From a virus: a DNA stretch of 64,000 bases. Shown piece by piece: positions 6,584-29,703 of the stretch (position 1 is the first letter of the stretch; each line of letters opens with the position of its first letter). The DNA lies in IMG/VR virus record IMGVR_UViG_3300009152_000003, positions 19,981-83,980 of that record, one strand, 5' to 3'. The notes beneath the pieces are model-generated. The model did not search any database. It was not told where the DNA came from and worked only from the letters and a program-made list of their open reading frames with translations. Both the position numbers and the translations under genes were made by a program.

Positions 6584-6585
6584 GG

Positions 6586-7372: not shown

Positions 7373-7403
7373 GGCGACGTCCGTAAGCCGTATCAGGCGT
7401 GGG

Positions 7404-8656: not shown

Positions 8657-8683
8657 GTTCGCTCCAGGAGACCCTTTTGCTCG

Positions 8684-8689
8684 ATTCTA
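8684..8689 (-). promoter_or_regulatory. -10-like element TAGAAT
   Basis: TAGAATCG about 28 nt upstream of the start at 8656, followed by a GGAG SD. Confidence 0.5.
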
Positions 8690-9556: not shown

Positions 9557-9557
9557 T

Positions 9558-9869: not shown

Positions 9870-9872
9870 GAC

Positions 9873-10229: not shown

Positions 10230-10258
10230 CTGGCTTGCACCATGCCTGCCCAGGCAGT

Positions 10259-12291: not shown

Positions 12292-12296
12292 GGGGA

Positions 12297-12575: not shown

Positions 12576-12629
12576 GGCTGGTCCTCCTCTGGGGTCATGC
12601 TAGGCGGGGCGAGACTGAGTCCCGGCCGA

Positions 12630-15600: not shown

Positions 15601-15977
15601 GCCGCCTGGATAGCGCGCGCCGTGTCATCTACTGCCTGGTTTGCGTACGTTGCAGGGTCAAACAACAACCCTTGGCTGGAGTAGCCAGACCGCCGATCGG
15701 CGCGTTCGCTCCGTCCAGGGCCGGGGCTTTTGCTCCAGGTCGCCCACGGGGTTGGTTTTGGTGGTTTGCTTGAGTCGAACTTTGACGGTTGGGGGTCGTA
15801 ATACGCGGGAGCGTGCCTGATCGGTTCAAACAGCGCGCGAGCCGCGTTTTCCTCCCCGAAACCGGGCATCCCGGGCGAGGCGGGGCCCTTGGGCACCGAG
15901 CCAAATGCTTTGCGGGGCTCTCCGATGTCGCGAATCCCACCAATTCGCCGGCCGATGCCCCCATCGCGACCCGCCAT
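12630..15977 (-). CDS. large hypothetical protein, possibly an internal virion protein
   Basis: 1115 aa uninterrupted ORF and first gene of the late block; no motif recognised. Confidence 0.75.
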   Translation of the reverse strand: MAGRDGGIGRRIGGIRDIGEPRKAFGSVPKGPASPGMPGFGEENAARALFEPIRHAPAYYDPQPSKFDSSKPPKPTPWATWSKSPGPGRSERADRRSGYSSQGLLFDPATYANQAVDDTARAIQAATEGAPQGSVYTAMPDEDRVVRLPKFAAFSRESGAQSQSITEAIRKGALDGTLALRGRDPLGRQVLTPLGKRVTRADIDAAAGSDYEVKAYPSAAAVSTEIGEGSGVFTQPGYRSDVWEYANQRGEPGALGEQGVLVQLNPDGSDFLAVTNADLLKYNSQREADLTDRLPREQRRYAPMRDPAVSFGGEDIATPEDLRGYDRGESRQWRAMRAIDRKRQGRDSRRVNPPEPRGPRSDGYLDGELGAGQVGRKDAKGGRLYREYGGALNLASRELNQNPTRASRLPQGEWQPGGAWVDPSMVVLTRDMDPDSTAAWDRQKEVRLPEFTQFLLDRHKTPLLSRPEEVLTSERFIPEDPQKASEGGTRIGRVVVTERPDHPMFLGLNLPEVAEAISQRKPLVTTAVPLYQARGESGEPLYRIGHPMNRNYDALLKEFNQATGFARDVDVDPVSQAQVAGDNSKMGRYVSAQVLEAARQGGYSITPTDNPFLSKYEAGPGGTLGGWGDSGYLVRPTIVAAGGVNTGTPEPSSRMIRVGSDEWNSGRFSKAHTGIDLLSNQPAVRKAIAERQDLNPEGWTTISLLDEIARYTGAEPGFAGQGAGIERFMDPVNPGAFSIALGQAVPRGAAGRQSETQLEQLRQATQTLANNAHFVQEPIPGVLRGIDPQSGFERLAPRKPEQTGPRTLRELWSRTSRQAEPRLSGSARTRDIRSRMDQQRAAVLAEAAAVPQSELSGTPLLDILAASGGDKALAASPSLAKLLPERNQGLYPLGPELYPPGPEDFDEDALLEELGVTQRQPGWSDLVEIGSNEGSSNLGYRVLERAGDADGPITGRQAALEPFIRLAQRLGNLSPGHAAQVAESAFAQATGAPIDDMAIARRVAQIVRPGLVTGREQVQGLGNSPAPWLAPEEGQWRGQRGDRYNAPRQPNYSPRKAKLASISPQGELQARRDFRALTQADAENERAAYLQDLLSPSGSWAVYGPQRSRPGTAYS

Positions 15978-16019
15978 TGCTTGCTTGCCCCACGAATTGC
16001 CGTCAGATCAGTCTATCGG

Positions 16020-16675
16020 TGTTGTTTGCTAGGGCTTGCGGAGCGCTTGAGCGCGTCATTATGCGTTTTCGCACTACGATTCAAGGACCTGAAGCAAAAA
16101 AGGGCTCCTATAGGACCTTCAATTTTTTGTTGCGGCGCGCGACAGACATCAAAACCCACCCCAAGCGAGCAAGATTGCGGGAGGAAAAAAAAAGAGTGCA
16201 GTTGCGGCCAAGATGCTGGGCACGCATGCGTCCATTGCCTATTAATAGCAGGCACCAGCAGCAAGAGCAGGCGCCGTAGCAGCGCGCATGGCGCCTCAGC
16301 AGCAGCACACGCCATCCCCACGCAGCTCGTGCTATCCACACGCCTCGTAGGCGCATGCACGCGCTACTCACGCGCTCGCTTACGCACACCGCAGCGCTGC
16401 AATCGCAGCCTGCGATCTCTCCTGCAGCTGCAACACACGCGTCTGCAACACACGCAGCGCCTGCAGCGCACACGCACACACACTCGCTACACATCACTTC
16501 CTATTCCTTCTACCCTCTTACTCATTCTCTACCTATCTCAACGCCTCAAACCCCCTCCAACGCAGTCACTCTCCACTGCTTCCTTAATAGCTCACCTGCA
16601 CACTCGCTACGCGGGAGCACGCTCGCCACACACACTCCACGCACGCTGCGTAGGGGGCAGTAGTGGCATTGGTGT
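16020..16675. other. low-complexity non-coding tract at the late/early strand switch (candidate genome end or control region)
   Basis: Contains an A9 run, alternating CA/CG runs and a G-free pyrimidine-rich tract at about 16490-16540. The ORFs across it look spurious. Confidence 0.55.
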
Positions 16676-16678
16676 GCT

Positions 16679-16693
16679 CACTCAGCAGTGCAC
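16679..16693 (+). promoter_or_regulatory. conserved 15-mer CACTCAGCAGTGCAC, copy 1
   Basis: Exact copy of a motif present 7 times, all on the + strand and all intergenic. Confidence 0.8.
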
Positions 16694-16770
16694 GTGCCTG
16701 CTGTGCAGCATACACGCTCCAGCAACCACTTGGTTTCGCTTATGCGCAATCAAGGGGGTTCAAATGAGCT

Positions 16771-16785
16771 CACTCAGCAGTGCAC
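16771..16785 (+). promoter_or_regulatory. conserved 15-mer, copy 2
   Basis: Exact match, upstream of the ATG at 16841. Confidence 0.8.
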
Positions 16786-16840
16786 ATGTTTGTTGAGCAG
16801 CTCATGTCCTCTCTTGGCCCAGCGCAAGCCGGCTTCGCTC

Positions 16841-16987
16841 ATGCTCCGCATCATTTCCTTCGCTCAAGACAACCCCAAGACTTACTTGGCCGGATGTCTT
16901 GCATTCGGGACCCTCCTCCGCCTGGCCATGTGCCACGGCAACTTGGATCTCTTCATGGATCCCCTCTATCCGCTCATCCACCGCTAG
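16841..16987 (+). CDS. small hydrophobic early protein
   Basis: 48 aa (MLRIISFAQDNPK...) lying between motif copy 2 and a terminator. Confidence 0.5.
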   Translation: MLRIISFAQDNPKTYLAGCLAFGTLLRLAMCHGNLDLFMDPLYPLIHR

Positions 16988-17007
16988 TGCCACATCTGGC
17001 ACCCCCG
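16985..17007 (+). repeat. 23-bp palindromic repeat TAGTGCCACATCTGGCACCCCCG, copy 1
   Basis: Identical to 18164-18186; core is GTGCCA-CATC-TGGCAC. Confidence 0.8.
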
Positions 17008-17011
17008 TCTC

Positions 17012-17047
17012 GCCCCTGGTCCCGCACACGCGGATCAGGGGCTTTTT
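17012..17047 (+). terminator. intrinsic terminator
   Basis: GCCCCTGGTCC...GGATCAGGGGC hairpin followed by TTTTT. Confidence 0.75.
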
Positions 17048-17056
17048 CAGTGAGCT

Positions 17057-17071
17057 CACTCAGCAGTGCAC
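17057..17071 (+). promoter_or_regulatory. conserved 15-mer, copy 3
   Basis: Exact match, just after a terminator and upstream of the ATG at 17127. Confidence 0.8.
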
Positions 17072-17126
17072 ATGCCTGTTGAGCGGCTCAGGGACCTCTC
17101 GCCCCGGTGAAAGCCGGGTTCCCTCA

Positions 17127-17696
17127 ATGGCTACCACTCAGACCAAGGCCGCTCTCGCCGAAGCCCTCGAGGCTGCCACCAGCCGCATCAGCGAACTGGA
17201 AGCCCTCATCGCTGCCGCCCAGAGCGAGCAGCAACAGCCAACCGCTGCCGCCCATCTGGATCAGGTCCTCTGGATCCAGCGCAAGCCGCTCGCGGAGCGC
17301 ACACCTGACGGCAAAGGCAACATTGGCTACACCCGCAGCGGAATGCTCACTGTGCGCTTCGCCGCGCAATACGCCTCCCTCGACAAACGGACAGGCACCC
17401 GCACCTTCGGCGTCTGGAAGTTCTTCACTTCCTACGGCGAAGTCGCCCAGCAGGTCATCGACCTGATGCGCACTGAAGACCGCCTCGTCCGAGTCCAGGC
17501 CTACGAAGAGCCCTGGTCCAGCGCTCAAGACCCCAACGCTCGCAACAGCGACTGGGTCGTACGAGGCTTCAACCCTATCGGCCGCGGCGCCGGCACTCCC
17601 CCGGAGCTGCCGCCCGTGCCCGCCAAAGCCGCCCCTGCTGCAGCACCCGCTGCCGCAGCGCCTGCCCAGCCCCAGCTGGCACCAGTCGCCTTCTGA
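17127..17696 (+). CDS. early protein with N-terminal coiled coil and possible OB-fold (SSB-like) domain
   Basis: Beta-rich core (GYTRSGMLTVRFAAQY...WKFFTSYGEVA) and a P/A-rich tail; strongly C-ending codons. Confidence 0.6.
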   Translation: MATTQTKAALAEALEAATSRISELEALIAAAQSEQQQPTAAAHLDQVLWIQRKPLAERTPDGKGNIGYTRSGMLTVRFAAQYASLDKRTGTRTFGVWKFFTSYGEVAQQVIDLMRTEDRLVRVQAYEEPWSSAQDPNARNSDWVVRGFNPIGRGAGTPPELPPVPAKAAPAAAPAAAAPAQPQLAPVAF

Positions 17697-17703
17697 GGCA
17701 CAC

Positions 17704-17744
17704 GCCCCCGGCTCCGCCATCTGGCGGGGTTCGGGGGCTTTTTT
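17704..17744 (+). terminator. intrinsic terminator
   Basis: GCCCCCGGCTCCGCCA-TC-TGGCGGGGTTCGGGGGC followed by TTTTTT. Confidence 0.85.
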
Positions 17745-17752
17745 ATTGGCCC

Positions 17753-17767
17753 CACTCAGCAGTGCAC
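17753..17767 (+). promoter_or_regulatory. conserved 15-mer, copy 4
   Basis: Exact match, just after a terminator and upstream of the ATG at 17827. Confidence 0.8.
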
Positions 17768-17826
17768 ATGCCTGTTGAGCGGGCGCCTGTCCTCTCTCAT
17801 CCCGGCGAAAGCCGGGGCGTTTTGTC

Positions 17827-18147
17827 ATGACCGAATCCCGGCTCTATGACCTCTCCCAGCAACTCCGCCTGCTGGCACGCCGTGACTGCCATCTCTCAGC
17901 CCATGGCAGCCTTCTCAACGGCTCCGTCGACCGCAAGGTCGAGGACGCCCGCGAGGAACTCCTCGTTGCCCTGGAACTCATCCAGGACCGCCAAGCTCTA
18001 GACGTCCAGCACCTGGACGCCATCGACTACTGCCAGGCCCTTGCCTGGCGCAACCGCCATCAGATCCAGGCACTCCGCCGCCAGTCGGAGTTCGAGCAAC
18101 GCCTGGAAGCGCAAGCTCCACGGCCACTCCGCCTCGAGGCCGCCTGA
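17827..18147 (+). CDS. hypothetical early protein
   Basis: 106 aa helical ORF following the motif leader. Confidence 0.7.
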   Translation: MTESRLYDLSQQLRLLARRDCHLSAHGSLLNGSVDRKVEDAREELLVALELIQDRQALDVQHLDAIDYCQALAWRNRHQIQALRRQSEFEQRLEAQAPRPLRLEAA

Positions 18148-18163
18148 CCCCCTCATACCGGGG

Positions 18164-18186
18164 TAGTGCCACATCTGGCACCCCCG
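18164..18186 (+). repeat. 23-bp palindromic repeat, copy 2
   Basis: Identical to 16985-17007 and embedded in the longer hairpin ACCGGGG...CCCCGGT. Confidence 0.8.
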
Positions 18187-18267
18187 GTGTGCTTCATTAC
18201 CGACCGCTCTAGCTGACAGTCCCTGCTACCCTCCCGCAATTCGCCCGGGCACTGCCCGGCTTACAAC

Positions 18268-18609
18268 ATGACACCCGCTTCCGCGGGGCGCCTCGCCGGC
18301 ATTGCCTGGCGACACAGCGCCCCTGTCTTCTTCCTTGCCTGGGCTCTCGCCCGGGCACTCTTCGCCCTCTTCCTCCTGACCGGCGACGCCATTTGGCAGC
18401 GCCGTCAGAGCATCTTCCAGGGCATCCTGCACGCCCTGGTACACGCCTACGTGGCCGCTGAGGCCACCTACCACGCAGGCCGCCGCGTCAGGGCCCGCCT
18501 AGGCGCTCATGGCGCCCTCAGCGGTACCTCCGCTGCCCAGGCTCCCCAAGTCCTGCGCCTGGCGCTCCTGCGCTTCCTGGCGCGCCGCTACGGCTGGAGG
18601 CTGGCGTGA
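18268..18609 (+). CDS. hypothetical membrane protein
   Basis: 113 aa, hydrophobic, with a GTGA overlap with the next ORF. Confidence 0.55.
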   Translation: MTPASAGRLAGIAWRHSAPVFFLAWALARALFALFLLTGDAIWQRRQSIFQGILHALVHAYVAAEATYHAGRRVRARLGAHGALSGTSAAQAPQVLRLALLRFLARRYGWRLA

Positions 18610-18800
18610 TCACCATCACCGCCCCCAACGGCCAACTGCTCGCCGACCAGCGCGGGCAGTTCTTTTACTCCCACAAGGGCCAGCTCGTCTCGGTTCCGCC
18701 GACCTCCTGTCGCTGGGACCTGGCCGACATGGCCCGCCTCTGGGGCGACATGTGCGCCGTCACTGGCAACCCATACGTCCTCTCCATCAGCCCTGGCTGA
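18606..18800 (+). CDS. hypothetical protein
   Basis: 64 aa, coupled to the upstream gene. Confidence 0.55.
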   Translation: MITITAPNGQLLADQRGQFFYSHKGQLVSVPPTSCRWDLADMARLWGDMCAVTGNPYVLSISPG

Positions 18801-19302
18801 CACCTTCCCGTTGCCCCGTCTGACGCCTCCTACCCTTGGTGGCGTCATGAGACGGGGACTCGCTCTTGCTTGGCCTGCCCAGGCGAGAGCTTTCATCCTC
18901 CCCACCCCCATGGTCAAAACCTTCTCCATCTTCATTTCCGGCGTCGTTGGCGTCGGCATGATTGCCGGCGCAATCGCCGACTACCGGGCCCTCCGTCTGG
19001 AGGCCCAGGCCGGGATCCCCGTCCCGGAATGCGCCAACATCAGCCTCCTTAGGCCCCCCTGCCGCTGACCTCTCGACCATCCATTGCAGCCGATCGCGGT
19101 CAATCAGCAGGTCGCCCCTGACCCAGCTGATCACGCAGTTCGGTAACACCTGCTCCTCTGGCACCGGCGGCTGCCAGCTGTACCAGCTGTGCTTGCACCG
19201 GCGACACCTTCGCCAGCGAATCCGACCGCCTTCTAGGTCGACCGCTGGACGACTGGTGACGCAACCAGCCAAGCCGTTGCACCGGGAGCACCTCACTGTC
19301 AC
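18787..19302 (-). CDS. NrdR-like zinc-ribbon protein (3' end uncertain)
   Basis: CSRC...VTSRP...RIRWRRCRRCKHSWYSW resembles the NrdR N-terminal Zn ribbon. Confidence 0.55.
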   Translation of the reverse strand: MTVRCSRCNGLAGCVTSRPAVDLEGGRIRWRRCRRCKHSWYSWQPPVPEEQVLPNCVISWVRGDLLIDRDRLQWMVERSAAGGPKEADVGAFRDGDPGLGLQTEGPVVGDCAGNHADANDAGNEDGEGFDHGGGEDESSRLGRPSKSESPSHDATKGRRRQTGQREGVSQG

Positions 19303-19350
19303 GCTGCCTGACTGCCATAGCGGTCAGACAGTTTACCCCCCTCTCGCCTC

Positions 19351-19569
19351 ATGATTCTCGAAATCTTTTGCGGCCACGAGGCCTATGGCCCCGCCATGGG
19401 CAGCGCCAGATACCTCAGGCGCCTTGCCAGGGCCTTCCAGCGCGTTCACCCGCACGCTCGCGTTGTCCTCTCCCCAGAGGACGGCTACAGGCCCGCCCAG
19501 CTGGCCCTCTTGGCCGCCATCGCCGATCAAGGCGAGCGCGACATGCGCGAGCTCATGGAGGCCCCATGA
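19351..19569 (+). CDS. hypothetical protein
   Basis: 72 aa with an ATGA overlap with the next gene. Confidence 0.55.
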   Translation: MILEIFCGHEAYGPAMGSARYLRRLARAFQRVHPHARVVLSPEDGYRPAQLALLAAIADQGERDMRELMEAP

Positions 19570-19898
19570 CCACACAATCACTCTCCCTCCGCCTGGCGGA
19601 CGACCTCGCCGCCAATCCCCTGACCTGGCCGGGGCTCTACCCCCGCTACGGCGTCACCAACGACGGTCAAGCGCTCTGCCCCGACTGCTGCCGGACGGAG
19701 CGCAAGTGGATCGCCACCACCACCGGCTCTGACGGCTGGTGCCTCATCGACGTCTCCGTCGACTGGGGCGATAGCGACATCAGCTGCAGCCATTGCAGCA
19801 AGCCAATCCTCGAGGCCTGCCTTGAGGAACCCCAGGTCGGCACCGACGCGCCCACCGTTGAAGAACGCAACTCCCTCACCCTCGCCTACGCCCAATGA
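19566..19898 (+). CDS. conserved phage hypothetical protein (WPGxYP...LCxxC, CxxC)
   Basis: Motif pattern TWPGLYPRYGVTNDGQALCPDC...CSHC; ATGA overlaps on both sides. Confidence 0.7.
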   Translation: MTTQSLSLRLADDLAANPLTWPGLYPRYGVTNDGQALCPDCCRTERKWIATTTGSDGWCLIDVSVDWGDSDISCSHCSKPILEACLEEPQVGTDAPTVEERNSLTLAYAQ

Positions 19899-20308
19899 AC
19901 CCTGCCATCAAGACCCAATGGGTCGCCGCCCTTCGCTCCGGTGAATACCAGCAAGGCAGAAACTTCCTTCGCACCGACGAGGGCTTCTGCTGCCTAGGGG
20001 TCCTCTGTGACCTGGCCGCCAAGGCCGGCATCGGTGTGTACTGGAGCAAGCCCGCCGCAGCACCCACTCTCGACGGCCGCGTCTACGACGACGTTCAAGC
20101 CTGCTGCGACTCAACTGGAATCCTGCCTGCGGCCGTCATGTGCTGGGCTGATCTCGACACGGACTCTCCCGAGGTAACCGCTGTCAATGGCCTAAACATT
20201 GACGTGACCACCGACGGCGATTCCAACGTAATCCCGCTGGCACGCCTCAACGACACGCATCTGTTTGATTTTTCCATCATCGCTGACCTCATTGAGGCTC
20301 AATTGTGA
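19895..20308 (+). CDS. conserved phage hypothetical protein
   Basis: WVAALRSGEYQQG...FCCLGVLCDL...LND...FSIIADLIE, a pattern common in phage early regions. Confidence 0.75.
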   Translation: MNPAIKTQWVAALRSGEYQQGRNFLRTDEGFCCLGVLCDLAAKAGIGVYWSKPAAAPTLDGRVYDDVQACCDSTGILPAAVMCWADLDTDSPEVTAVNGLNIDVTTDGDSNVIPLARLNDTHLFDFSIIADLIEAQL

Positions 20309-20580
20309 AGCAGATCTCCTACACCGAACTTGCGTCTCACTTCCACCCCGAAGTGCACGACAGCCTCAAGCGCGTCGCCTGCCACCCAGGCGCTACGCAC
20401 CTGGTCTTGTTCCAGAACCAGGCTCTTGATTCATCTGCCCACGGCCTCTGCTCTGCGTTGGCTGTGGGCCCCGGCTGCACCCGCGCCTCCCTCGAGGAGG
20501 CGTATGCCGGCCACCTGAATGACCTGCCGTCCCAGCGGCAATATCCCATCGCCCATTGCGAGCTGCCCCATGCCGCATGA
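20305..20580 (+). CDS. hypothetical protein
   Basis: 91 aa with a GTGA overlap. Confidence 0.6.
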   Translation: MKQISYTELASHFHPEVHDSLKRVACHPGATHLVLFQNQALDSSAHGLCSALAVGPGCTRASLEEAYAGHLNDLPSQRQYPIAHCELPHAA

Positions 20581-20875
20581 CCCCCTCTGGTCCGGCTGGT
20601 TCGATGGCCGCACGGCCATTCGTGACCTGCTGGCTGACTGTATCAAAGACTGCTCGGCTCGCGAAAGCGACGTCAGCGAAGCTGTTGACCACTGGGTCAA
20701 GAAGCTCCAGCTCGAGGCCCCACCCTGGCTGCTGCGCGAGCACCTCCGCGGCACCGGGGGCTACGAGCCCTGGCAGCTCTGCGATCACCAGGCGAACCTG
20801 CGTCGCCTGCTCTTTTCCTGGGCCTGCGACTGCCGCGAGAGCGGTCTCAACCTTCCCATCTATCTCGCTCGATGA
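20570..20875 (+). CDS. conserved phage hypothetical protein
   Basis: LREHLRGTGGY...DHQANLRRLLFSWACD. Confidence 0.65.
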   Translation: MPHDPLWSGWFDGRTAIRDLLADCIKDCSARESDVSEAVDHWVKKLQLEAPPWLLREHLRGTGGYEPWQLCDHQANLRRLLFSWACDCRESGLNLPIYLAR

Positions 20876-21066
20876 CGGCCCGCTCTGCGCCTTTCCTCTG
20901 CACCAGCATCTTCACCTGCGGTGTCTGCCTGGCGGATCTCGTCGACCGCAACACCGCGGACCACTCCTTCTACCCCCAGGCCTGGATCCCTGGGCCCCAC
21001 CCATCCCCTGCGGCGGTTGAGCTCCACGAGCTCCGCCGCTGGCAGACGCTTGCTAGCACACCATGA
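20872..21066 (+). CDS. hypothetical protein
   Basis: 64 aa, ATGA-coupled. Confidence 0.5.
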   Translation: MTARSAPFLCTSIFTCGVCLADLVDRNTADHSFYPQAWIPGPHPSPAAVELHELRRWQTLASTP

Positions 21067-21272
21067 ACTCCCCACTGCCGCGAGAGCGGCCTCAGCCTCT
21101 CACTCTCAAGGTAGAAGCCACCGGCGCCACCGACGACGACTTGCTCATCGCTCTCGACGAAGTCAAGCGCCTCATCTCTGAAGGCTTCAGCTCAGGCTTC
21201 GGCTCCAACGAGAGCGGCTCTTTCAGCTTCGAATACAGCGACACCGCCTGGAGACAAACCAATGAATCTTGA
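21063..21272 (+). CDS. hypothetical protein
   Basis: 69 aa, ALDEVKRLISEGFSSG...GSFSF; coupled. Confidence 0.65.
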   Translation: MNSPLPRERPQPLTLKVEATGATDDDLLIALDEVKRLISEGFSSGFGSNESGSFSFEYSDTAWRQTNES

Positions 21273-21474
21273 CTTCGACGCCGACCTCGGCGCCCCCGGG
21301 GCTCCGGCGTCCCGGCGCTTCGTGTTCATCACTCGAACAATCGGCCCCTCTGGCGGCCACGCCCTTGACGCTATTGCCGACGACGGCACTGCCTGGTACG
21401 CCGTGCTGCAGCGTGGCGCCGGCCTCAGCGTCTCGTCCTGGCAGCCGCACCCGCCTCTGCCGCCGATCAACTGA
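21262..21474 (+). CDS. hypothetical protein
   Basis: 70 aa, LDAIADDGTAW...WQPHPPLP. Confidence 0.6.
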   Translation: MNLDFDADLGAPGAPASRRFVFITRTIGPSGGHALDAIADDGTAWYAVLQRGAGLSVSSWQPHPPLPPIN

Positions 21475-21688
21475 ACACCGGCTCGGCCACGCCTAATGAC
21501 CGGGGGACAGCTTCCTCTTGGATGTCCGCCACCCGGCCAGCGCGGGCGCGCATCAGTTCTCTAACGCGCTCGCCCTCGGCGTTCCAGCCCATCGCAGGCA
21601 GCGCAAGGCCTCTCACTAGGGCCTCTTGCCATAGAGCTGCCTCGATCAACCCAGCCAGATCAATCTGGTCCCCCGCAAACCTCTCCAC
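21467..21688 (-). CDS. late-type hypothetical protein (RFAGDQ motif)
   Basis: GTG start immediately after the stop of 21690..22181. Confidence 0.55.
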   Translation of the reverse strand: MERFAGDQIDLAGLIEAALWQEALVRGLALPAMGWNAEGERVRELMRARAGRVADIQEEAVPRSLGVAEPVFS

Positions 21689-21689
21689 A

Positions 21690-22181
21690 TCAGGCGAGCG
21701 GGCTGTTCTCTGTCCTCTCGCCTGTCGTCGAGCCCTCCTGCAAGAACCCCATCAACTGCAACAACTGCTGGGCGGGCGCTGTCAACAGCGCACCGCCACC
21801 CACGATCGCCGTCGGCAACACGCCGCGACGGACGTAATCGTTCGTTGCGATCCCTTCGTTGATCATCTCCATCGTGCCGCGACCTGTCCAACCACCCTGC
21901 CCGCGACGCATGTCGGGGGCGTACTGGCTGGCAATCCTGGCGCGGCCCTTTTGATTGCCCAGGGCGCTCTCGATCCCCGCAACGGCATCAGCCGCCGGAG
22001 GAGCGAAGCCCCTGGTAATCCGCTCCATGATCTGCGAGCGGTACTTCCCTTCGGTATCGCCCTGGATCATCGCGGTGTTCCGCGCAATCCCAGCAGCCCT
22101 GTCCCCTGCTTGGCGCTTGGCTGCCTCCTCGGCAATCCAGGCGTCAAGCCCAGCAAGCTTGCCCTGAATCTGACCCCACAT
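21690..22181 (-). CDS. late-type hypothetical protein
   Basis: GAGGT SD and a TAGAAT -10 (22204-22209) upstream; C-terminal hydrophobic helix. Confidence 0.65.
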   Translation of the reverse strand: MWGQIQGKLAGLDAWIAEEAAKRQAGDRAAGIARNTAMIQGDTEGKYRSQIMERITRGFAPPAADAVAGIESALGNQKGRARIASQYAPDMRRGQGGWTGRGTMEMINEGIATNDYVRRGVLPTAIVGGGALLTAPAQQLLQLMGFLQEGSTTGERTENSPLA

Positions 22182-22227
22182 GGATAGCACCTCGGATCGT
22201 TCGATTCTAGGTGGATCTTTGTGGGTC

Positions 22228-22242
22228 CACTCAGCAGTGCAC
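22228..22242 (+). promoter_or_regulatory. conserved 15-mer, copy 5
   Basis: Exact match upstream of the ATG at 22285, back-to-back with a minus-strand TAGAAT. Confidence 0.8.
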
Positions 22243-22284
22243 ATGCCTGTTGAGCCCCTTTATCTCTCTGTTTGGAACAAGACC

Positions 22285-22686
22285 ATGCCCATCATCGCTT
22301 TTGGCCCCTTCGAAATCCGCCTCAACTCCGGCACCACCGGCGTCAACTGGACCGACACGGAGCTTGCCTTCGTGACCGGTCGTAACGGCGCCGGCTTCGC
22401 GACACGAGAAACCGCACTTCGCGCCGGCTTCAAGTCCGAGCACCTGCTCGAGCTCGCCGGTGAGGACGACACCAACGACACCAAGGTCGTCAACGGTGCC
22501 ACCTACCACGGCAAGCGCAGCACTGGCTTCGACGGCAAGGACTACGTCCTCTCTGCTGAGCAAATCGCCGCACGCGCCGAGTACCGCAAAGCCATGCGCG
22601 AAAGCCAAAACCAGGCCAAACGCGCCGCCGAGTTCGCCGCAGGCAGCGACCCCTCGATCACCGTCGAGGCCGCACCTGCGGGCTGA
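22285..22686 (+). CDS. hypothetical early protein
   Basis: 133 aa with strong codon bias, flanked by the motif and a terminator. Confidence 0.75.
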   Translation: MPIIAFGPFEIRLNSGTTGVNWTDTELAFVTGRNGAGFATRETALRAGFKSEHLLELAGEDDTNDTKVVNGATYHGKRSTGFDGKDYVLSAEQIAARAEYRKAMRESQNQAKRAAEFAAGSDPSITVEAAPAG

Positions 22687-22710
22687 TCCCTCAGGCCCTG
22701 CCACAATCAC

Positions 22711-22746
22711 AGCCTCGGCGTGCGTCCTGCATGCCGAGGCTTCTTT
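22711..22746 (+). terminator. intrinsic terminator
   Basis: AGCCTCGGC...GCCGAGGCT followed by TCTTT. Confidence 0.7.
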
Positions 22747-22958
22747 GTGACAACAGTGACCGCCATGGCAAGCTATCGCACCAATGCCGTGCTACACGTC
22801 CATCGCCTGCGTGACTGGTCTGCCATCTTGCTTCGTCAAGCAAGGGCCAGTTTCGACGCCGGCGATGGCAGTCAGACGGCCGAGTCCGTCGCTGCCATCC
22901 GCGACCTCCACCGCTCGTTCCAGCAACGAGCCCAGCAAATCGACCAAACCCTTTCCCT

Positions 22959-23654
22959 ATGACCATCGCCCCCTCTAAACCCAAAACCCCTTCCCTCTTC
23001 CAGATCACCCTGGAAAGCCAGGAGATCGACGGCGAGCTTTCGATCGCCCTAGCCAAGGCCAGCTCCGAGGACCCCGAGGAGCAAGCCGAAGCCGAGGCTC
23101 TGATCACCAGCCTGCTCGAGCGGGCCAATGACAGCCAGCGCATGCTGCTTCGCAAGGCCAACGGCATCTGCCAGATCCGCGAGATGCTGCTCGGTAAGGC
23201 CGAGTTCCTCCGCAAGGGCGCAGCCGAGCGCATCGCCAAAGCCGAGGCCGAGGAACGCGCCGCCCAGCGCCTGGAGGACTACCTCCTGCGCTGCCTGCAA
23301 GCCCTCCACCCCGGACAAACGAAGTTCGAACTGCCCGAGTTCACCATTGTTTCGCGTCCAAGCGAAGCCGTCGAAGTCGACACCAGCCTCGACGCTCCAG
23401 ACATGCCCGAAGAGTTCACCCGAGTTGAACTCAAGCTCAAGCTTTCAGGCCACGGCAGCACCAGGGCCTGCGACATCGAGCGCCTACTGCGTGGACACCT
23501 TGAAGACATGCTCGATGGCTGCCCTCCCGGCACCTACGAGCTGGCCGAGCCCAAGGCTGCGCCCGACAAGACGGCCATCAAGGCCGCCATCAAGGAGGGC
23601 GCCACCGTCCCCGGCGCACAACTGGTCAAGCGCCGCTCCTGGTCCATCAAGTGA
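22959..23654 (+). CDS. Siphovirus Gp157-family protein
   Basis: Long coiled coil and C-terminal PDKTAIKAAIKEGATVPGAQLVKRRSWSIK. Confidence 0.85.
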   Translation: MTIAPSKPKTPSLFQITLESQEIDGELSIALAKASSEDPEEQAEAEALITSLLERANDSQRMLLRKANGICQIREMLLGKAEFLRKGAAERIAKAEAEERAAQRLEDYLLRCLQALHPGQTKFELPEFTIVSRPSEAVEVDTSLDAPDMPEEFTRVELKLKLSGHGSTRACDIERLLRGHLEDMLDGCPPGTYELAEPKAAPDKTAIKAAIKEGATVPGAQLVKRRSWSIK

Positions 23655-23976
23655 CCGTCAAGTTCCCAATCAAGTTCCCATCAGGCGTCTGCCAAGCATC
23701 ACCAGGCGCCCAGCAAGTACCCATCAAGTACTTGCTTTCTCGATACCTGCCAAGTATTCGTTTTCCGGGTACTCGCTTCCCCCGGCCCGACTTCCTGCGC
23801 GTGACCACGCCGTCGGGCCGGTTCCTGGTCACACCCAACAGCGGCAGAGCACGGCTGGCCCTCAACCAGCTGTGCGATCCCTCCCTGCCGCGTCTCGGTG
23901 ACGCTCTGCTGCTCTCCCCTGAGCAGGCAGCTGGCGTCACCGCCTACCTCCAGTCCCTCTCCTTCTCTGTAAAGCC

Positions 23977-24606
23977 ATGGCAGTCCATACCATCACCTCG
24001 GCCCCCAGGCCCAGCTTCAGGCACAACGGTTACCACTTTGCCTACTACGACCGCGTTGCCCCCACCGGCAAGCAATGCGTGGTTGCCTTCCCAACCAGTC
24101 TCGCTGACACCATCAAGCCTGGCTTTCAGTTCGACGAAGCCACCAGTGTCCACTGGGACGACGCTCTCAAGGCGTCTGTCCTCCACTTGGACTTCGATGA
24201 GCGCGAAAGCCTGGCTGAGCCTTCGCTCCCTCCTGACCCTGAGTCCGGGTGGGGCGACATTGACTATCCCGCTCCCTCCCCTGCCGAAGTCGAGCTGACT
24301 TCCGGCAACAACCACGCAACACCTGCCGCCAATAGCCAGCCAGCCATGCGCGGCCCGGCTCACCGCAAATCGGAAGCTCAGAAGGCTATCGAGCAGGGGG
24401 CTCAGCTGCCCGCGGCCTACCTCAAGATCAACTTGGAGGTCAGTCGCTCCTTCCTGCTCCAGCTGCGCCTGATTGGCAACGCCGTTGGCGAACACAATCG
24501 CGCAATGATTGCTCAGAAGCTCTGCGCTATTTCGTCCATTCCCTACTACAAACAAATCGGCGTCAACCTCACAGAAGAAGACGTCAACAGCATGACTGCC
24601 CTCTGA
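23977..24606 (+). CDS. hypothetical protein
   Basis: 209 aa with typical early-gene codon usage. Confidence 0.65.
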   Translation: MAVHTITSAPRPSFRHNGYHFAYYDRVAPTGKQCVVAFPTSLADTIKPGFQFDEATSVHWDDALKASVLHLDFDERESLAEPSLPPDPESGWGDIDYPAPSPAEVELTSGNNHATPAANSQPAMRGPAHRKSEAQKAIEQGAQLPAAYLKINLEVSRSFLLQLRLIGNAVGEHNRAMIAQKLCAISSIPYYKQIGVNLTEEDVNSMTAL

Positions 24607-24636
24607 TACCGGCGAATGAGTGCGTTCTTGTGGGTG

Positions 24637-24651
24637 CACTCAGCAGTGCAC
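24637..24651 (+). promoter_or_regulatory. conserved 15-mer, copy 6
   Basis: Exact match, here extended to a perfect GTGCACT-CAGC-AGTGCAC hairpin; upstream of the ATG at 24675. Confidence 0.8.
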
Positions 24652-24674
24652 ATTCCTTGTTCCTTGTTTTCGCT

Positions 24675-25271
24675 ATGGAAGCTCTCCTTGCTCCGCAAGA
24701 CACCGCTCTTGCTCCTCTCCCCTCGTGGGCTGTTCCGGCCACGCCCGAGCGCAACTACACCACCGTCGGCATCTCTGCTGACGGCCTCCTCTACATCTAC
24801 GGCGACAGCGCCTCATCGCCAGGTCCCATCCTGCCCAGCGTGCTTGGCGTCGTCGTCGACATCCAAATCAGCCAACACGGCGGTGCCAGCCGCTACGGAG
24901 TCCGAGACTACCTGGACCTCCACCTGGGCACCGCCATCCCTGGTGAGTTCGTCGTGCTGCGCTTGCCCTGTCAGGCAAAGCCGCACCTCGATACCAGCGA
25001 GCTACAGACCCCGTGGTCCGTACGCTCCCTCGTTGGCGCTCTCCTCCTGCTTGACTTGCAGGAGACAGCGATCAAACTGCAAACCAAGCGCGGGAACACC
25101 ACCACGTTCTTCCGCGTCTTCCCCCACTCCGCCGAGGGGATCGAGCAACCCGAAGTCCGGGCCGAATCCATCGGACCGGCACAGGGCGACCTCGAGATCG
25201 CTGTTAACCGACTGCGCAGCCAGCTCGGTCTCCCTCCTCAATTCACCGAGCCCTTCGTTGATGTCACCTGA
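24675..25271 (+). CDS. hypothetical protein
   Basis: 198 aa beta-rich ORF following motif copy 6. Confidence 0.7.
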   Translation: MEALLAPQDTALAPLPSWAVPATPERNYTTVGISADGLLYIYGDSASSPGPILPSVLGVVVDIQISQHGGASRYGVRDYLDLHLGTAIPGEFVVLRLPCQAKPHLDTSELQTPWSVRSLVGALLLLDLQETAIKLQTKRGNTTTFFRVFPHSAEGIEQPEVRAESIGPAQGDLEIAVNRLRSQLGLPPQFTEPFVDVT

Positions 25272-25785
25272 CCCATCTGTACCGGACCAGATCTCCCAGG
25301 AATCCCTGCAACAGTTCCTGCTCAACGCCTCATCAGCAGGTGCCAGGGATCTGCCAATCGGAACCAAAGTTCCTCGGCTGCCGCTTAGCGACCCTGACTT
25401 TGGGGCCGCCGACTTGGTCGTCGCCTTGGAACAGCTCCTGGCAGCGGCGGGTGGAGCCAACTCGCTTCACCTCATGCACGCCAGCAGCTTCCTGCTGAGC
25501 GTTGTCGTCGCCGCTATGGAGCGACGCCTCGAAGATCCGGAGATTGCCGAAATCGGCGGGCTGGCCGGACTCGTCTTTCTGGCCACAACTCGAACGCTGA
25601 TCAGGGGCATCGTCACCTGCATCGGTCAGATCGATGACTTCATCGGTCCCCTCACCGTTGTCCACGCCGAGAGCATCGGCGGCGGCCCTGGCAGCCGCAA
25701 GGGGCTCGTCAGTGACGGCACCCTTTCCGCCCTGGGTCTCGACATCGAGGACTACGACCGCGAGTTCAAGCGGCGCGTCCCCTGA
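25261..25785 (+). CDS. hypothetical protein
   Basis: 174 aa from the ATG at 25261, overlapping the upstream stop. Confidence 0.6.
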   Translation: MSPDPSVPDQISQESLQQFLLNASSAGARDLPIGTKVPRLPLSDPDFGAADLVVALEQLLAAAGGANSLHLMHASSFLLSVVVAAMERRLEDPEIAEIGGLAGLVFLATTRTLIRGIVTCIGQIDDFIGPLTVVHAESIGGGPGSRKGLVSDGTLSALGLDIEDYDREFKRRVP

Positions 25786-25827
25786 CCTTCCCCACTCGCA
25801 CCTCTCTCTTCATCCCCTTCTCACCCC

Positions 25828-26910
25828 ATGTCAAGCGAGTTCACTTCAGGCGTCTTTGCTTTCGGCACCAAAGCCTGGCACAACGAAGGCGATGTCATCG
25901 AAGGCACCCTGCCGGCTGACGAGATGTTCCGCCGCGCCCAGGCCCTCTTCCCCGTCGAGACGCTCCAGCTCCACGCCGGCGACATTGACAGCCCTGCCCT
26001 GCACGACGCCATCGCCCGCGCTGCCGATCAGTCCTTCAGCTCACCAGAAGAGCGCGGCATCGCCATCCACCAGGCACTTCAGCAGCACCTGGTCTCGCTC
26101 AGGGAAAACCGTGTCGGCATCTGGCGCCCCGACGAACGCAAGATTCTCGGCACCGCCAGCCCTGGCTACCGCGTCATCCCCAACGTCCGACTCCTCGACT
26201 TCGCCCAGGCCATCCGCGAAGAAACCGACATGGACGCCTGCGTCGTCCTGCGCAACGGCGCCAAGGTCGCCTTCACGGCCAAGATTCGGGGCACCGACCA
26301 GCAGGTCGTGCCCGGCGACAAGGTGTACCGCAACATCGTGGGCTACCTCGGTCATGACGGCTCGACCGCGTTTGGCGGCATGTTCTCAGACATCCGCGTT
26401 GTCTGCCGCAACACCCTTGGCTTTGCGATGAGCGATGCCAACCGCCACGGGCGGCAGTTCACTATCCGCCACACCGACAACGACGTCGCCCAGATCGACA
26501 ACGTGCTTCAGAACATCGACATCGCCCGCCAGACCTTCGCTGCCGTCCTTGACGACTACCGCAGCATGCAGGCCACGCCGATGGGCCTCGACCTCTACCG
26601 CCACTGGCTGGAGCAGGTCTACCAAGTCCCCGACGTCAAGCTCGTCGGCGGCGACACTCGCCCGGGCCGCATCGACGACATGCCCCGCAAGTGGGCGCAG
26701 CTTGAGCGTGCCTGGAACTACGGCCTCGGCCGTGACATCCCCGGTGTTTCCGGCACCGTCTACGCCGGCCTCAACGCCGTCACCGAAGTCGAGACTTCGA
26801 TGCTGACTGCCGGTGCCGGCAAGCGCCGCCTGCACTCGACCCTGTTCGGCACCGGTGCTGGCGTCATCCGCCGCGCCAACGAACTGGCGCGTGATCTGGT
26901 GACTGCCTGA
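25828..26910 (+). CDS. DUF932/DUF945-family phage/plasmid protein
   Basis: AWH near the N-terminus, YRVIPN, GHDGS, IRVVCRNTL, IRHT and GTVYAGLNAVTE motifs. Confidence 0.85.
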   Translation: MSSEFTSGVFAFGTKAWHNEGDVIEGTLPADEMFRRAQALFPVETLQLHAGDIDSPALHDAIARAADQSFSSPEERGIAIHQALQQHLVSLRENRVGIWRPDERKILGTASPGYRVIPNVRLLDFAQAIREETDMDACVVLRNGAKVAFTAKIRGTDQQVVPGDKVYRNIVGYLGHDGSTAFGGMFSDIRVVCRNTLGFAMSDANRHGRQFTIRHTDNDVAQIDNVLQNIDIARQTFAAVLDDYRSMQATPMGLDLYRHWLEQVYQVPDVKLVGGDTRPGRIDDMPRKWAQLERAWNYGLGRDIPGVSGTVYAGLNAVTEVETSMLTAGAGKRRLHSTLFGTGAGVIRRANELARDLVTA

Positions 26911-26969
26911 TCGATCTTCCTGCCCCTGCTGTTTGCGGGGGCTTCCTCTCTTTCCTCTCACCTCACTCC

Positions 26970-28316
26970 ATGGCCAAATTCCAACTGACCATCAGCTCCG
27001 ACTACGTCAGCGACTGGAGCGCCTACGAAGGCGTCCGTGAATCCATCCAGAACGCCCTGGATGGCAAGGATGCCGGCCATCCCATGCACATCCGTCATAA
27101 CGGTGACACCCTCAACATCGCCAACTTCGGCGTGCGCCTCGACCGCTCGGTCTGGCTGATGGGCAGCACATCCAAAGCTGAGACCGACGCCCGCGGCCAC
27201 TTCGGCGAAGGGCTCAAACTCGGCGCCCTGGCTCTGGTCCGTGCCGGCCGCAAGCTCCGCATCGTCAACGATGACGAGGACTGGCTCTGCACCCTTGAGG
27301 ACTCCAAGGCCTTCCCGGGCCAGCAGGTCCTGACTGTCACCACCCGCAAGCGCCCCACCCCGCTGGGTGCCTTCTCGGTTCAGGTCCTCTGTTCCGAGGA
27401 GGAATGGAGCGAGTGGCAGGACTCCTTCATTGACCTCAAGCCCAAGGCTCTGAAGTCGATCCCCGCCGGCGGCGTCCAGATCCTCACCGATCCCGTCGAG
27501 CGTGGCCGCTGCTATGTCAAAGGCATCTTTGTCGAATACAAGCCGGATCTTTACGCTGGCTACAACTTCAACCGCGACGTTCGCACCGACCGCGATCGCC
27601 GGGTGATGAACAGCTTCGACTTCGACTACCACGCCGGCAACGCCTGGATCGGCGCCCTCACCGACGGAGAGATCACTCCCACCGACATGCTGGCCATGCT
27701 GCAATCAGCAGCGCCAGATGCTAAGGCAACCGGCAACCGCTATTGCCCCGCTTCTGGTATCGAAGCCGTCGGCACTGCCTGGACTTCCATCCATGGCGCC
27801 TCTGCTATGCCTGTTCTTGATCAAGCCGGCGCCATCGAAGCTGGTCACTATGGCCGGATCGGCATCATCGCCAGCCCTGCGACCTGCACCTTCCTCGATG
27901 ACCACCCGACATTGAGCCTCAAGTCCCTGCGGGTGGCGAAGCGCAACGACGTCACGGCCACCTACGGCCTGGGCGATCTCACCTATTCCGAGCGTTTCAT
28001 CTACCAGTCCGCCATCGAAGCCATCACCCCGACGCTTAACTCCATGGGCATCACGCCCATCGCGCCTCGTCTCGGCCTCGTCGACTTTCAGTGTGACGAC
28101 GTCCTTGGCCTGCACCGCTTCAACCGAGAAGAATCCGTGCACCAGATCCTGGTGGCACGGCGCACCCTCAAGTCCCTGCCCTCCTTCCTGCAGGTGCTCG
28201 TCCACGAGATTGCTCACGACTTCGGCGGCGACGGCGAAGTCAGTCACGAGCGCGCCGAAGGCGAGATCTTCTCCAAGGTCATCAGCCGACTGCTCGATGC
28301 CGCCCTGGTCGCATGA
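26970..28316 (+). CDS. GHKL (HATPase_c-like) ATPase fused to a C-terminal HExxH zincin-like domain
   Basis: Bergerat-fold motifs RESIQNALD, GSTSK and GHFGEGLKLG; C-terminal LVHEIAHD...H. Confidence 0.8.
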   Translation: MAKFQLTISSDYVSDWSAYEGVRESIQNALDGKDAGHPMHIRHNGDTLNIANFGVRLDRSVWLMGSTSKAETDARGHFGEGLKLGALALVRAGRKLRIVNDDEDWLCTLEDSKAFPGQQVLTVTTRKRPTPLGAFSVQVLCSEEEWSEWQDSFIDLKPKALKSIPAGGVQILTDPVERGRCYVKGIFVEYKPDLYAGYNFNRDVRTDRDRRVMNSFDFDYHAGNAWIGALTDGEITPTDMLAMLQSAAPDAKATGNRYCPASGIEAVGTAWTSIHGASAMPVLDQAGAIEAGHYGRIGIIASPATCTFLDDHPTLSLKSLRVAKRNDVTATYGLGDLTYSERFIYQSAIEAITPTLNSMGITPIAPRLGLVDFQCDDVLGLHRFNREESVHQILVARRTLKSLPSFLQVLVHEIAHDFGGDGEVSHERAEGEIFSKVISRLLDAALVA

Positions 28317-28612
28317 CCGACGGCGCCATGCGACAAGTCGGGACGCCCTGTCCCGACTGCGGCTCGATCGAGCGCGGTGTCATCGAGTCGCGGCCCCGCA
28401 GTGGCGGCTCGATCTACCGCCGCTGCTTTTGCCGCCGGTGCGGTACTCGCTACACCACTCGGGAACAACTGGTCGGCGAGGCAGCCACCAAGACGCCCGA
28501 CGACAGCCGCGCCGAACGGCTCAGACGCGCGGCAATGATCGATCAGATCGATCGCATCGAGCGCAGCCTTGCCGTCCTCAGGAAGAACGTGCCTCCTGTC
28601 AATTTGACCTGA
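28313..28612 (+). CDS. NrdR-like zinc-ribbon protein lacking the ATP-cone
   Basis: CPDCG...VIESRP...IYRRCFCRRCGTRYTTRE followed by a short coiled coil. Confidence 0.75.
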   Translation: MTDGAMRQVGTPCPDCGSIERGVIESRPRSGGSIYRRCFCRRCGTRYTTREQLVGEAATKTPDDSRAERLRRAAMIDQIDRIERSLAVLRKNVPPVNLT

Positions 28613-28624
28613 TCTTTGTAGCCC

Positions 28625-28639
28625 CACTCAGCAGTGCAC
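28625..28639 (+). promoter_or_regulatory. conserved 15-mer, copy 7
   Basis: Exact match heading the 28.7-37 kb gene run. Confidence 0.8.
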
Positions 28640-28697
28640 AGATCTGTGTTGCTGGCTGGGGTTGCTTGTCCTCTTTGTTTCCTAGCTCCCTCCTTCC

Positions 28698-29249
28698 ACG
28701 ACCGAAACCAACGCCATCCAGTATTTCGACATTGCCAAACAGATTCAGCAACGCTACGAAAACCTGAGTTCCGAAAAAGACCAATGTGTCTTGCAGTTGC
28801 GGGCAATCTTTGCTTTCCTACGCACCAAGTACCCCGACCTGCGGCGCATCGAAATCGTCTACGACGGCTGCGGTGATAGCGGCCAGGTCGAATCGATTCA
28901 CTTTAGCTCGGACTGCGATGTTTGGACGCACTCGACCAACTTAAAAATCGACGACTCGGAGGTTCTTCCCAACGAAATCGCCTGTGGCCACACAGCTCGC
29001 AAAGGGCACTGGTGCAACGAGCGCCGCGAGTGGGTTCAAGACGAAGAGCTTCGCAATGAAAACATTGCAGACGCTCTAGACCGCATTGGTTGGGACATCG
29101 CCTATGGCGAAAACCCTGGCTTTGAGGTCAACGAAGGCGGTTACGGCACCGTCTCTGTCTCCACTGACGGCGACTCCGATGAGATCCGGGTCAACCTTGA
29201 GCACAGCGAACGCTACGAGTCGACAACCGATACCTCTTACACCTATTGA
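28698..29249 (+). CDS. DUF6878-like protein (start uncertain: ACG 28698 or TTG 28791)
   Basis: YDGCGDSGQVE and GFEVNEGGYG motifs; the frame is open from 28686. Confidence 0.7.
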   Translation, partial: TTETNAIQYFDIAKQIQQRYENLSSEKDQCVLQLRAIFAFLRTKYPDLRRIEIVYDGCGDSGQVESIHFSSDCDVWTHSTNLKIDDSEVLPNEIACGHTARKGHWCNERREWVQDEELRNENIADALDRIGWDIAYGENPGFEVNEGGYGTVSVSTDGDSDEIRVNLEHSERYESTTDTSYTY

Positions 29250-29656: not shown

Positions 29657-29703
29657 ATCCATCGACCACTACCCCGAACCCTGAGTTCGCTGCAGTGAGA
29701 TCA
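29646..29703 (+). repeat. 58-bp direct repeat copy 1 (dead duplicate of the 5' end of 30019..30423)
   Basis: 54/58 identical to 30019-30076; an in-frame TGA replaces GGG. Confidence 0.85.

Follow-up and report, generated by a model that had tools for sequence, protein, structure and literature searches.

What is the short sequence that heads one early gene after another in this virus, and how does it act? The window analysed here is the whole stretch of 64,000 nucleotides (nt) that forms bases 19981–83980 of an 83,980-base-pair (bp) IMG/VR virus record, and positions below are those of the window unless the genome is named. It contains seven exact copies of the 15-mer CACTCAGCAGTGCAC, at 16679, 16771, 17057, 17753, 22228, 24637 and 28625, all on the plus strand. 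An earlier interpretation made from the letters of the window (the sequence-only reading) had described these copies as a hairpin motif in intergenic DNA, and as a phage-specific, strand-specific regulatory signal at the head of early transcription units. The seven copies, their strand and their intergenic placement were confirmed at every position, and the view of a signal heading early units is upheld by what follows. We read the sites, with a probability of roughly 45%, as terminator-promoter joints of gene cassettes that resemble the promoter-early stem-loop (PeSL) cassettes of T4-type phages, with a lineage-specific promoter that is not of the sigma70 type.

The repetition is far above chance. 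Shuffling gives an expectation of 0.27 copies of the 15-mer, none of 100 shuffles reached seven, and the motif is the sole strongly over-represented 10–12-mer of the genome. The window holds no further copy at up to two mismatches, and no other copy exists on either strand of the 83,980-bp genome. With gene starts set by conservation in relatives, 7/7 copies are intergenic, in a window of which about 9% is non-coding. Six copies had been placed 23–60 nt before a start codon. Five of these are clear, as copies 2–6 precede an ATG conserved in relatives by 55, 55, 59, 42 and 23 nt, respectively, and the sixth (copy 7) is ambiguous, since its 58 nt lead to an ACG at 28698 where the relative G002 has ATG. 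Copy 1 has nothing but copy 2 downstream, with no open reading frame (ORF) between them. The copies, with the TG box and RNA hairpins described below, are as follows.

16672–16705, plus strand: copy 1, with the TG box at 16673–16674, the core TCAGCAGTGCAC at 16682–16693 and a downstream CTGCTG complement.
16764–16797, plus strand: copy 2, TG box and core, RNA hairpin at 16773–16797 (CUCAGCAG / UUGUUGAG).
17050–17083, plus strand: copy 3, TG box and core, RNA hairpin at 17059–17083, 9 nt past a terminator U-run.
17746–17779, plus strand: copy 4, TG box and core, RNA hairpin at 17755–17779, 8 nt past a terminator U-run.
22221–22254, plus strand: copy 5, TG box and core, RNA hairpin at 22230–22254.
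24630–24651, plus strand: copy 6, whose core pairs upstream (GTGCACT-CAGC-AGTGCAC, 24634–24651) and has no downstream complement, with the ATG 23 nt on.
28618–28654, plus strand: copy 7, with a variant TG box (TA), the core and a different downstream stem at 28629–28654.

To see which bases are conserved, we turned to relatives. A 737-amino-acid (aa) virion protein (phrog_20475) has 43% identity to its counterpart in Synechococcus phage S-EIV1, and the structural module is syntenic with that of S-EIV1. The phage is an uncultured freshwater cyanophage of the S-EIV1 lineage. Scanning for the exact pattern and with a profile of the portal-like protein brought up more than 577 related IMG/VR stretches, and the lineage counts hundreds of contigs from uncultured cyanophages of fresh and marine waters. 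Ten related contigs carry 2–10 co-oriented copies apiece. After filtering, 67 sites from ten related genomes were kept for alignment, and these sites all lie on the gene strand in every genome whose whole record was searched. Two parts are invariant: a TG nine bases before the core, and TCA-R-C-N-GT-R-CA. The core reaches about 2 bits per position and the flanks about 0–0.6 bits. Judged from this alignment, the conserved unit is TG-N7-TCARCNGTGCA, with an 11-base core, and not the 15-mer; it is kept across clades of 49–64% GC.

The individual relatives show how this unit varies. The close relatives G001–G004 have 2–6 copies each, in orthologous places with diverged flanks and on one strand per record. 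G005 and G006 (64% identity in the portal-like protein) and G014 (71%) have 7–10 co-oriented copies of NNN-TCAGCAGTG(C/G)(A/G)C, in which the first three positions vary freely (CAC, TTC, AAA, AAC, TCC, CTC, CGC, ATC) while AGTG is unchanged. Because these three bases vary freely, the inverted repeat CACT-CAGC-AGTG, which the sequence-only reading had taken as the core, is incidental and not under selection. G008 (53% GC) has nine copies of TTTTGyACTTyT-TCAACAGTGCAA, and G007 (49% GC) has nine copies of TG(C/A)CC...-TCAAC(A/T/G)GTGCAT; the GTGCAC of the core thus becomes GTGCAA in G008 and GTGCAT in G007. More distant members of the lineage have no such core, and carry their own repeated elements at equivalent places. 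In S-EIV1, this is GTCCyrAGyATGACnTTAAAsTGCTyAc, present in six gene-strand copies 25–30 nt before ATGs and forming a hairpin with compensatory stem changes. In G010 (record positions 67046–81309), ten copies of a near-invariant terminator hairpin, GGACCC-TAAT-GGGTCC, occupy these places; behind each come a T-run and rTGTTCTTTAy, and the ATG stands 10–25 nt later. G010 keeps the cassette layout with a solution of its own. That sub-lineages differ in the motif at corresponding places is as expected if a phage-encoded reader co-evolves with its site.

The conserved bases also pair with their surroundings, in a manner that differs between clades. In the high-GC clade, which includes this phage, the CUCAGCAG of the core pairs with a downstream CUG(U/C)UGAG, with GC-GC pairing across an ACAU loop. 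Over 22 non-redundant sites of this clade, 78.6% of cells were paired, compared to 30–44% for slid partners. Pair 19:26 occurs as GC (9), GU (8) and AU (4), and GTGCAC is coupled with atgCctg where GTACAC is coupled with atgTctg. The copy-5 orthologues have this stem lengthened upstream to 11–13 bp, with a compensatory T-A to A-T exchange. In copy 6, where the downstream partner is absent, the 3' half of the core pairs with upstream sequence, and the 7-bp stem that had been noticed there is real. In G007 and G008, it is the TG box that pairs with the 3' half of the core, forming a 7-bp stem with an 8-nt loop that contains the invariant TCAAC. Here 88.1% of cells were paired versus 14–55% when slid, the covariation score was 0.29 versus 0.165 (reached by 0 of 500 shuffles), and pair 9:18 occurs as U-A, A-U and C-G plus a U-G wobble. 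A hairpin with the upstream box was also tried for the high-GC clade and rejected, as its 61.7% paired cells were no better than the 59.7% of slid controls. A search of Rfam at E<=1 gave no match.

Because the template strand would have A.C wherever the coding strand has G.U, the folding is at the RNA level and the element is present in transcripts. The covariation thus shows a conserved core that is, on this comparative evidence, transcribed and folded into RNA hairpins. This leaves two options: either transcription starts at the 5' edge of the element, so that the recognised sequence becomes a 5' hairpin, or the element functions in RNA only.

Next, we focused on what surrounds the copies. 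The terminator structures next to copies in the window are as follows.

17012–17048, plus strand: intrinsic terminator with GC stem and U-run that ends the 48-codon gene directly before copy 3 (-34.1 kcal/mol, z -4.4).
17704–17744, plus strand: intrinsic terminator that ends the 189-codon gene directly before copy 4 (-34.1 kcal/mol, z -3.8).
22711–22750, plus strand: terminator-like hairpin with T-rich tail that closes the copy-5 cassette.

By folding, the terminators before copies 3 and 4 are strong hairpins with U-runs that end 8–9 nt ahead of the copy, in agreement with the sequence-only reading, which had put two copies about 10 nt after intrinsic terminators. Terminators precede most copies in G005–G008 and G014. 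In G007 and G008, nearly every copy directly follows an intrinsic terminator, and the ATG lies at -1 to +7 nt from the core in 8 of the 18 sites. G008 has nine successive units of strong terminator, motif and small ORF, with only about 24 nt, all of it motif, between U-run and ATG. Provided that these serial terminators work, a separate restart is required for every gene, and the motif is all that is conserved in these gaps. Between G005 and G006, which have about 95% identity, one early cassette is replaced and one is inserted, and the homology blocks start or end within about 25 nt of the cores. The repeated joints double as recombination seams for the exchange of gene cassettes, and the proposed analogy to the promoter/stem-loop cassettes of T4-like phages is borne out by these swaps. 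A second conserved hairpin, GTGCCA-CATC-TGGCAC followed by CCCC, lies on the stop codons of two early genes (16985–17007 and 18164–18186) and is distinct from the terminators.

The motif copies are clustered beside a divergent non-coding region, at the beginning of a rightward arm of about 45 kb.

15978–16671, no strand assigned: divergent gene-free region, CA/CAG-rich, about 690 nt, between the leftward virion operon and copy 1.

Leftward from 15977 run the virion genes, including terminase and an ORF of 1115 aa. The rightward arm encodes, among others, a Gam-like protein, DUF932, SSB, a VapE primase-helicase, a deoxynucleoside monophosphate (dNMP) kinase and ThyX. The gene-free region contains many CAGCAG and CACACGC repeats and two AT islands (TTAATAGC at about 16246 and 16587). 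In G001–G003, a variant motif copy (TCAGCGGTACAC or TCAGCAGTACAC) stands at the left edge of this region, right after an A-run; it is decayed or lost in the phage studied here. Possible roles for this region are those of an origin, a packaging site or a non-coding leader. GC skew on the plus strand is strongly negative (-0.13 to -0.21) over 16000–52000, the whole rightward arm, and is not seen in the leftward virion arm. A 123-bp terminal repeat at the record ends indicates a circular assembly and lies away from the motif cluster. A megablast search of 16–30 kb against GenBank phages gave no match.

Sequence that resembles a host promoter is missing from this part of the genome. No sigma70-type site was found on the plus strand over 15.5–30.5 kb, and none at any copy, as the sequence-only reading had held for the motif itself. 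Matches to the sigma70 consensus over 15.5–64 kb were at or below chance (2 seen, about 6.5 expected), and throughout 16000–52000 they were rarer than in shuffled sequence. The first copy in each genome is preceded by a gene-free region without a sigma70-like site. Sites for sigma54, extracytoplasmic function (ECF)-type sigma factors, NtcA, a LexA box and an extended -10 were compared by eye and rejected, as spacing or key bases fail in each. Scanning a genome collection for the extended motif gave 25 single matches, mostly in Bacteroidota; none was cyanobacterial, which indicates that the host does not use the motif and that there are no prophages carrying it. A metagenome-collection scan returned only further relatives, with no transcript-like contigs beginning at the motif, and in the literature the motif strings matched nothing but primers, by chance. 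The RNA data consist of one lake metatranscriptome run that contains the phage, as contigs only, so that transcript starts cannot be read from it. In this run, the bin 16002–16668 is uncovered with both sides covered and one contig ending at 15995, which we do not count as evidence.

Together, we read each joint as the terminator of the previous gene, a T-rich run, TG, 7 nt and TCARCNGTGCA, a short leader and the next gene, separating early transcription units. A restart signal at each joint is favoured because strong terminators stand in series, each followed by only the element and a gene, and because the first copy follows a gene-free region without a host-type promoter. Initiation at the motif, the position of the start and the identity of the reader are what we infer from this arrangement. 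The upstream terminator would end transcription, which would restart at the joint from a lineage-specific early promoter. The start would coincide with the 5' edge of the element or lie close to it, perhaps at the invariant G of the TG, and the core would form part of the first bases of the mRNA, folding into a 5' hairpin. This hairpin would be made with the downstream CUGUUGAG in the high-GC clade that includes this phage, and with the TG box in the low-GC clade, where the AUG would follow 0–7 nt beyond. The reader would be a phage-specified factor or polymerase specificity that is unrecognisable by sequence. A fuller version of this proposal is speculative, and we would sooner bet against it than for it: the S-EIV1 lineage would start its early genes through a specificity system in which no resemblance to known phage polymerases or sigma factors can be detected. 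A phage protein, either virion-delivered or the LAGLIDADG pair described below, would read the 20-nt asymmetric site TG-N7-TCARCNGTGCA, a site that diverges between sub-lineages, and the recognised sequence would form the beginning of the mRNAs, which in some clades would be almost leaderless.

Several observations weigh against a promoter at the joint. One contig of the metatranscriptome runs uninterrupted across copy 5, in data where, being contigs, no 5' ends are mapped. The covariation puts the element in RNA from the TG box onwards in the low-GC clade and from 1–6 nt before the core in the high-GC clade, and most of the contiguous conserved block of 20–22 nt lies inside RNA. For a promoter, the most conserved part would therefore be downstream of the start, which is unusual. 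Copies 5–7 have no preceding terminator, and upstream of the TG only T-rich sequence is conserved. Finally, our sequence searches yielded no candidate polymerase, sigma factor or activator.

These searches for a reader covered several families. Six-frame searches of five complete genomes found no sigma70 region 2, NusG or tyrosine integrase (PF00589), with positive controls detected for all three; T7-type polymerase (PF00940) gave no match in the five genomes either, and no control genome contains that family. About 60 ORFs scanned against Pfam and PHROGs contained nothing transcription-related, no single-subunit RNA polymerase and no repressor domain, and the D-x-D-G-D motif is absent from all ORFs of at least 400 aa. 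The earlier statement that the cognate factor is not recognisable thus agrees with the ORF and six-frame scans. As for signs of lysogeny, genome positions 1–19980 have no PF00589 match in six frames and no tRNA (ARAGORN), and the 394-aa and 232-aa ORFs at genome 3.5–7.4 kb have no integrase domain. Two loci were considered as the source of a reader.

12630–15977, minus strand: the 1115-aa ORF, the largest ORF, with homologues of 1085–1236 aa.
Genome 16769–18057, plus strand, upstream of the window: tandem LAGLIDADG-like genes, a degenerate pair.

For the locus 12630–15977, a public protein collection gives a product of 691 aa; the 1115-aa form is probably the real one because the homologues cover the longer frame. 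The sequence-only reading had suggested that this protein could be the cognate factor. We found nothing to bear this out: it has no match in Pfam, PHROGs, sequences of the PDB, phage genomes (by tblastn) or Atlas, and its AlphaFold2 (AF2) model (mean predicted local distance difference test score, pLDDT, of 50) had no usable Foldseek match (best E=0.09), a weak result given the poor model. The LAGLIDADG pair is present in G007, G008, G009 and G013 and absent from G010, G011, G012 and S-EIV1. It occurs in every relative with the TCARCNGTGCA core and in two incomplete contigs, and is absent from four complete genomes without the core. As many other genes have the same phyletic pattern, this correlation may simply follow clade structure.

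How else could the joints be explained? The element might act in RNA only: one upstream promoter would drive the early arm, and the motif would act in the transcript, either as a nut/boxB- or put-like loading site for passing the cassette terminators or as a site for processing or stability, giving monocistronic mRNAs that carry a hairpin at the 5' end and a terminator hairpin at the 3' end. This is a credible second explanation, although we consider it the less likely one. It draws on the covariation in G007/G008 (88% paired) and in the high-GC clade (78.6% paired), on the contig of the RNA library that crosses copy 5, and on the low-GC hairpin, whose loop contains the invariant bases, as is the case for RNA hairpins that bind proteins; a leader RNA hairpin with a conserved loop, backed by covariation, is what a nut/boxB site would look like. 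A serial arrangement of element, gene and terminator also fits an element placed ahead of the terminator that it overrides. However, antitermination systems need one site per operon and not one per gene, nine strong terminators in series would make read-through costly, and no promoter is visible upstream of the first copy. The pairing partner of the core switches among clades, being downstream, upstream or, in some copies, absent, a pattern more in keeping with a generic 5' hairpin than with one fixed fold for protein binding, and neither an Rfam match nor a NusG-like gene was found. Another explanation is an operator of the 'stoperator' type of mycobacteriophage L5, at which a phage repressor or shut-off protein, with the LAGLIDADG pair as candidate binder, would sit on the asymmetric site and block polymerase in one orientation, silencing early genes in lysogeny or late infection. 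Many asymmetric, near-invariant intergenic sites co-oriented with transcription agree with this, as does the shared phyletic pattern of the core and the degenerate LAGLIDADG pair. Yet that pattern is common to many other genes, the five complete genomes have no tyrosine integrase (with positive controls detected), no repressor was found, the sites are confined to the first 12–17 kb of the early arm and always to gene heads, and the covariation at the RNA level is left unexplained. Overall, we consider an operator improbable.

Two further explanations are less probable still. The joints could be DNA sites that have no part in transcription: places where one particular strand is nicked, as happens in T5 or phiKMV, sites for priming on single-stranded DNA, or mere scars left by the recombination of mobile cassettes. 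In favour of this, every copy is on the same strand and next to an unusual stretch of non-coding, repeat-rich DNA, a VapE-type primase-helicase and an HNH protein are among the gene products of the phage, and cassettes are swapped at the joints. This explanation is nonetheless very unlikely, as it leaves unexplained the tight position after terminators and 0–60 nt before start codons in every clade, and as a core that is kept across genomes of 49–64% GC points to a signal that is read rather than to a scar. Least probable of all is the N4-type promoter with which the sequence-only reading had compared the motif, in which a polymerase injected from the virion, for instance the 1115-aa protein, would read a DNA hairpin. 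The copies do cluster at the start of the early arm, a host-type promoter is absent, and the 1115-aa ORF is real and conserved, with its function unassigned. However, the mini inverted repeat is not conserved, and the stems that are conserved are of the RNA type, with loops of 4–11 nt rather than 3 and with G.U wobbles in the coding strand that become A.C on the template. A start downstream of the hairpin is impossible in G008, where the ATG directly adjoins the element. The 1115-aa protein also has no polymerase signature: D-x-D-G-D is lacking, and no PDB, Pfam or fold match was found, the last from a poor model.

The genes that follow the copies are mostly small and without a known family.

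16841–16987, plus strand: gene after copy 2, 48 aa, no family.
17127–17696, plus strand: gene after copy 3, 189 aa, no family.
17827–18147, plus strand: gene after copy 4, 106 aa, no family.
22285–22686, plus strand: gene after copy 5, 133 aa, no family.
24675–25271, plus strand: gene after copy 6, 198 aa, no family.
28698–29249, plus strand: gene after copy 7, DUF6878, with ACG where G002 has ATG.

The next canonical in-frame start of the gene after copy 7 is a TTG at 28791, so this gene has either a non-canonical start or a truncated product. A Shine-Dalgarno sequence was seen at none of the early genes. The leaders after copies 2–4 (16800–16840, 17090–17126 and 17783–17826) share a CCUCUC tract followed by a hairpin with a GNRA-type tetraloop (GCAA or GAAA) just before the ATG. 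Further along, a near-duplicate segment of about 50 nt (atccatcgaccactacc...gttcgctgcagtgagatc) precedes two neighbouring genes (29657–29702 and 30030–30085), with ACG for ATG at the second copy.

Phages of the S-EIV1 type occur widely in lakes and in polar waters, and to our knowledge almost none of their genes have an assigned function. One conserved signal that organises the early programme may provide a handle on the takeover of picocyanobacteria, and the joints would explain the exchange of early accessory genes within the S-EIV1 lineage. Should the element be a promoter, a specificity factor or polymerase that has escaped recognition must be present in these phages, because both sigma70-type sites and genes for known polymerases are lacking. 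The drift of the motif between clades (TCAGCAGTGCAC, TCAACAGTGCAA, TCAACNGTGCAT and the S-EIV1 and G010 forms) supplies natural variants for a search for this reader by co-variation. The element could also be used as a compact, insulated expression part for cyanobacteria.

Among known systems, lambda nut/boxB and HK022 put resemble the joints in having a leader RNA hairpin with conserved bases upstream of terminators. They occur once per operon, whereas the element described here occurs once per gene, and no N-like or Nus-like gene was recognisable in this phage; small arginine-rich proteins have no detectable family. The stoperators of mycobacteriophage L5 are defined by being asymmetric, near-invariant, intergenic, co-oriented with transcription and present in many copies, and they belong to a temperate phage that has a repressor and an integrase and carries such sites in both arms. 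The joints likewise are asymmetric, near-invariant sites in many copies, in short intergenic gaps and in one orientation; unlike stoperators, they are limited to the early arm and to gene heads, show RNA covariation, and are not accompanied by a detected repressor or integrase. Coliphage N4 promoters, whose short conserved DNA hairpin has a stem of 5–7 bp and a loop of 3 nt on the template strand, share the clustering at the start of the early region, the lack of a host-type consensus and the involvement of a hairpin, but here the small DNA hairpin is not conserved, the stems are of the RNA type and there is no giant virion polymerase, the largest ORF being 1115 aa. Promoters of the T7 group are, like the element, contiguous, asymmetric signals of about 20 nt on one strand that are specific to phage sub-lineages. 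In T7, the conserved initially transcribed bases are also the 5' arm of a leader hairpin (the phi10 leader). The conserved block of a T7-type promoter, of about 20 bp, ends a few bases past the start site. The difference is that no single-subunit polymerase gene was found here and that most of the conservation would be downstream of the start.

The joints also resemble the PeSL cassettes of the T4-type phages RB49 and phi1 (Arbiol et al. 2010, PMC2839356). PeSLs are repeated intergenic joints before small early genes of unknown function, in which a restart signal is combined with a terminator stem-loop that contains G-T pairs (PMC2839356). A PeSL promoter conforms to the sigma70 consensus of the host, with a Shine-Dalgarno sequence behind it (PMC2839356), whereas the joints of this phage have neither, and their conserved block is a contiguous TG-N7-11-mer that is transcribed. 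In layout the two are alike, as the joints here are also intergenic, precede small early genes of unknown function and would combine a terminator with a restart signal. The likeness extends to how the cassettes move: related T4-type phages differ by insertions and replacements that end in the joints (PMC2839356), just as G005 and G006 differ by swaps at theirs.

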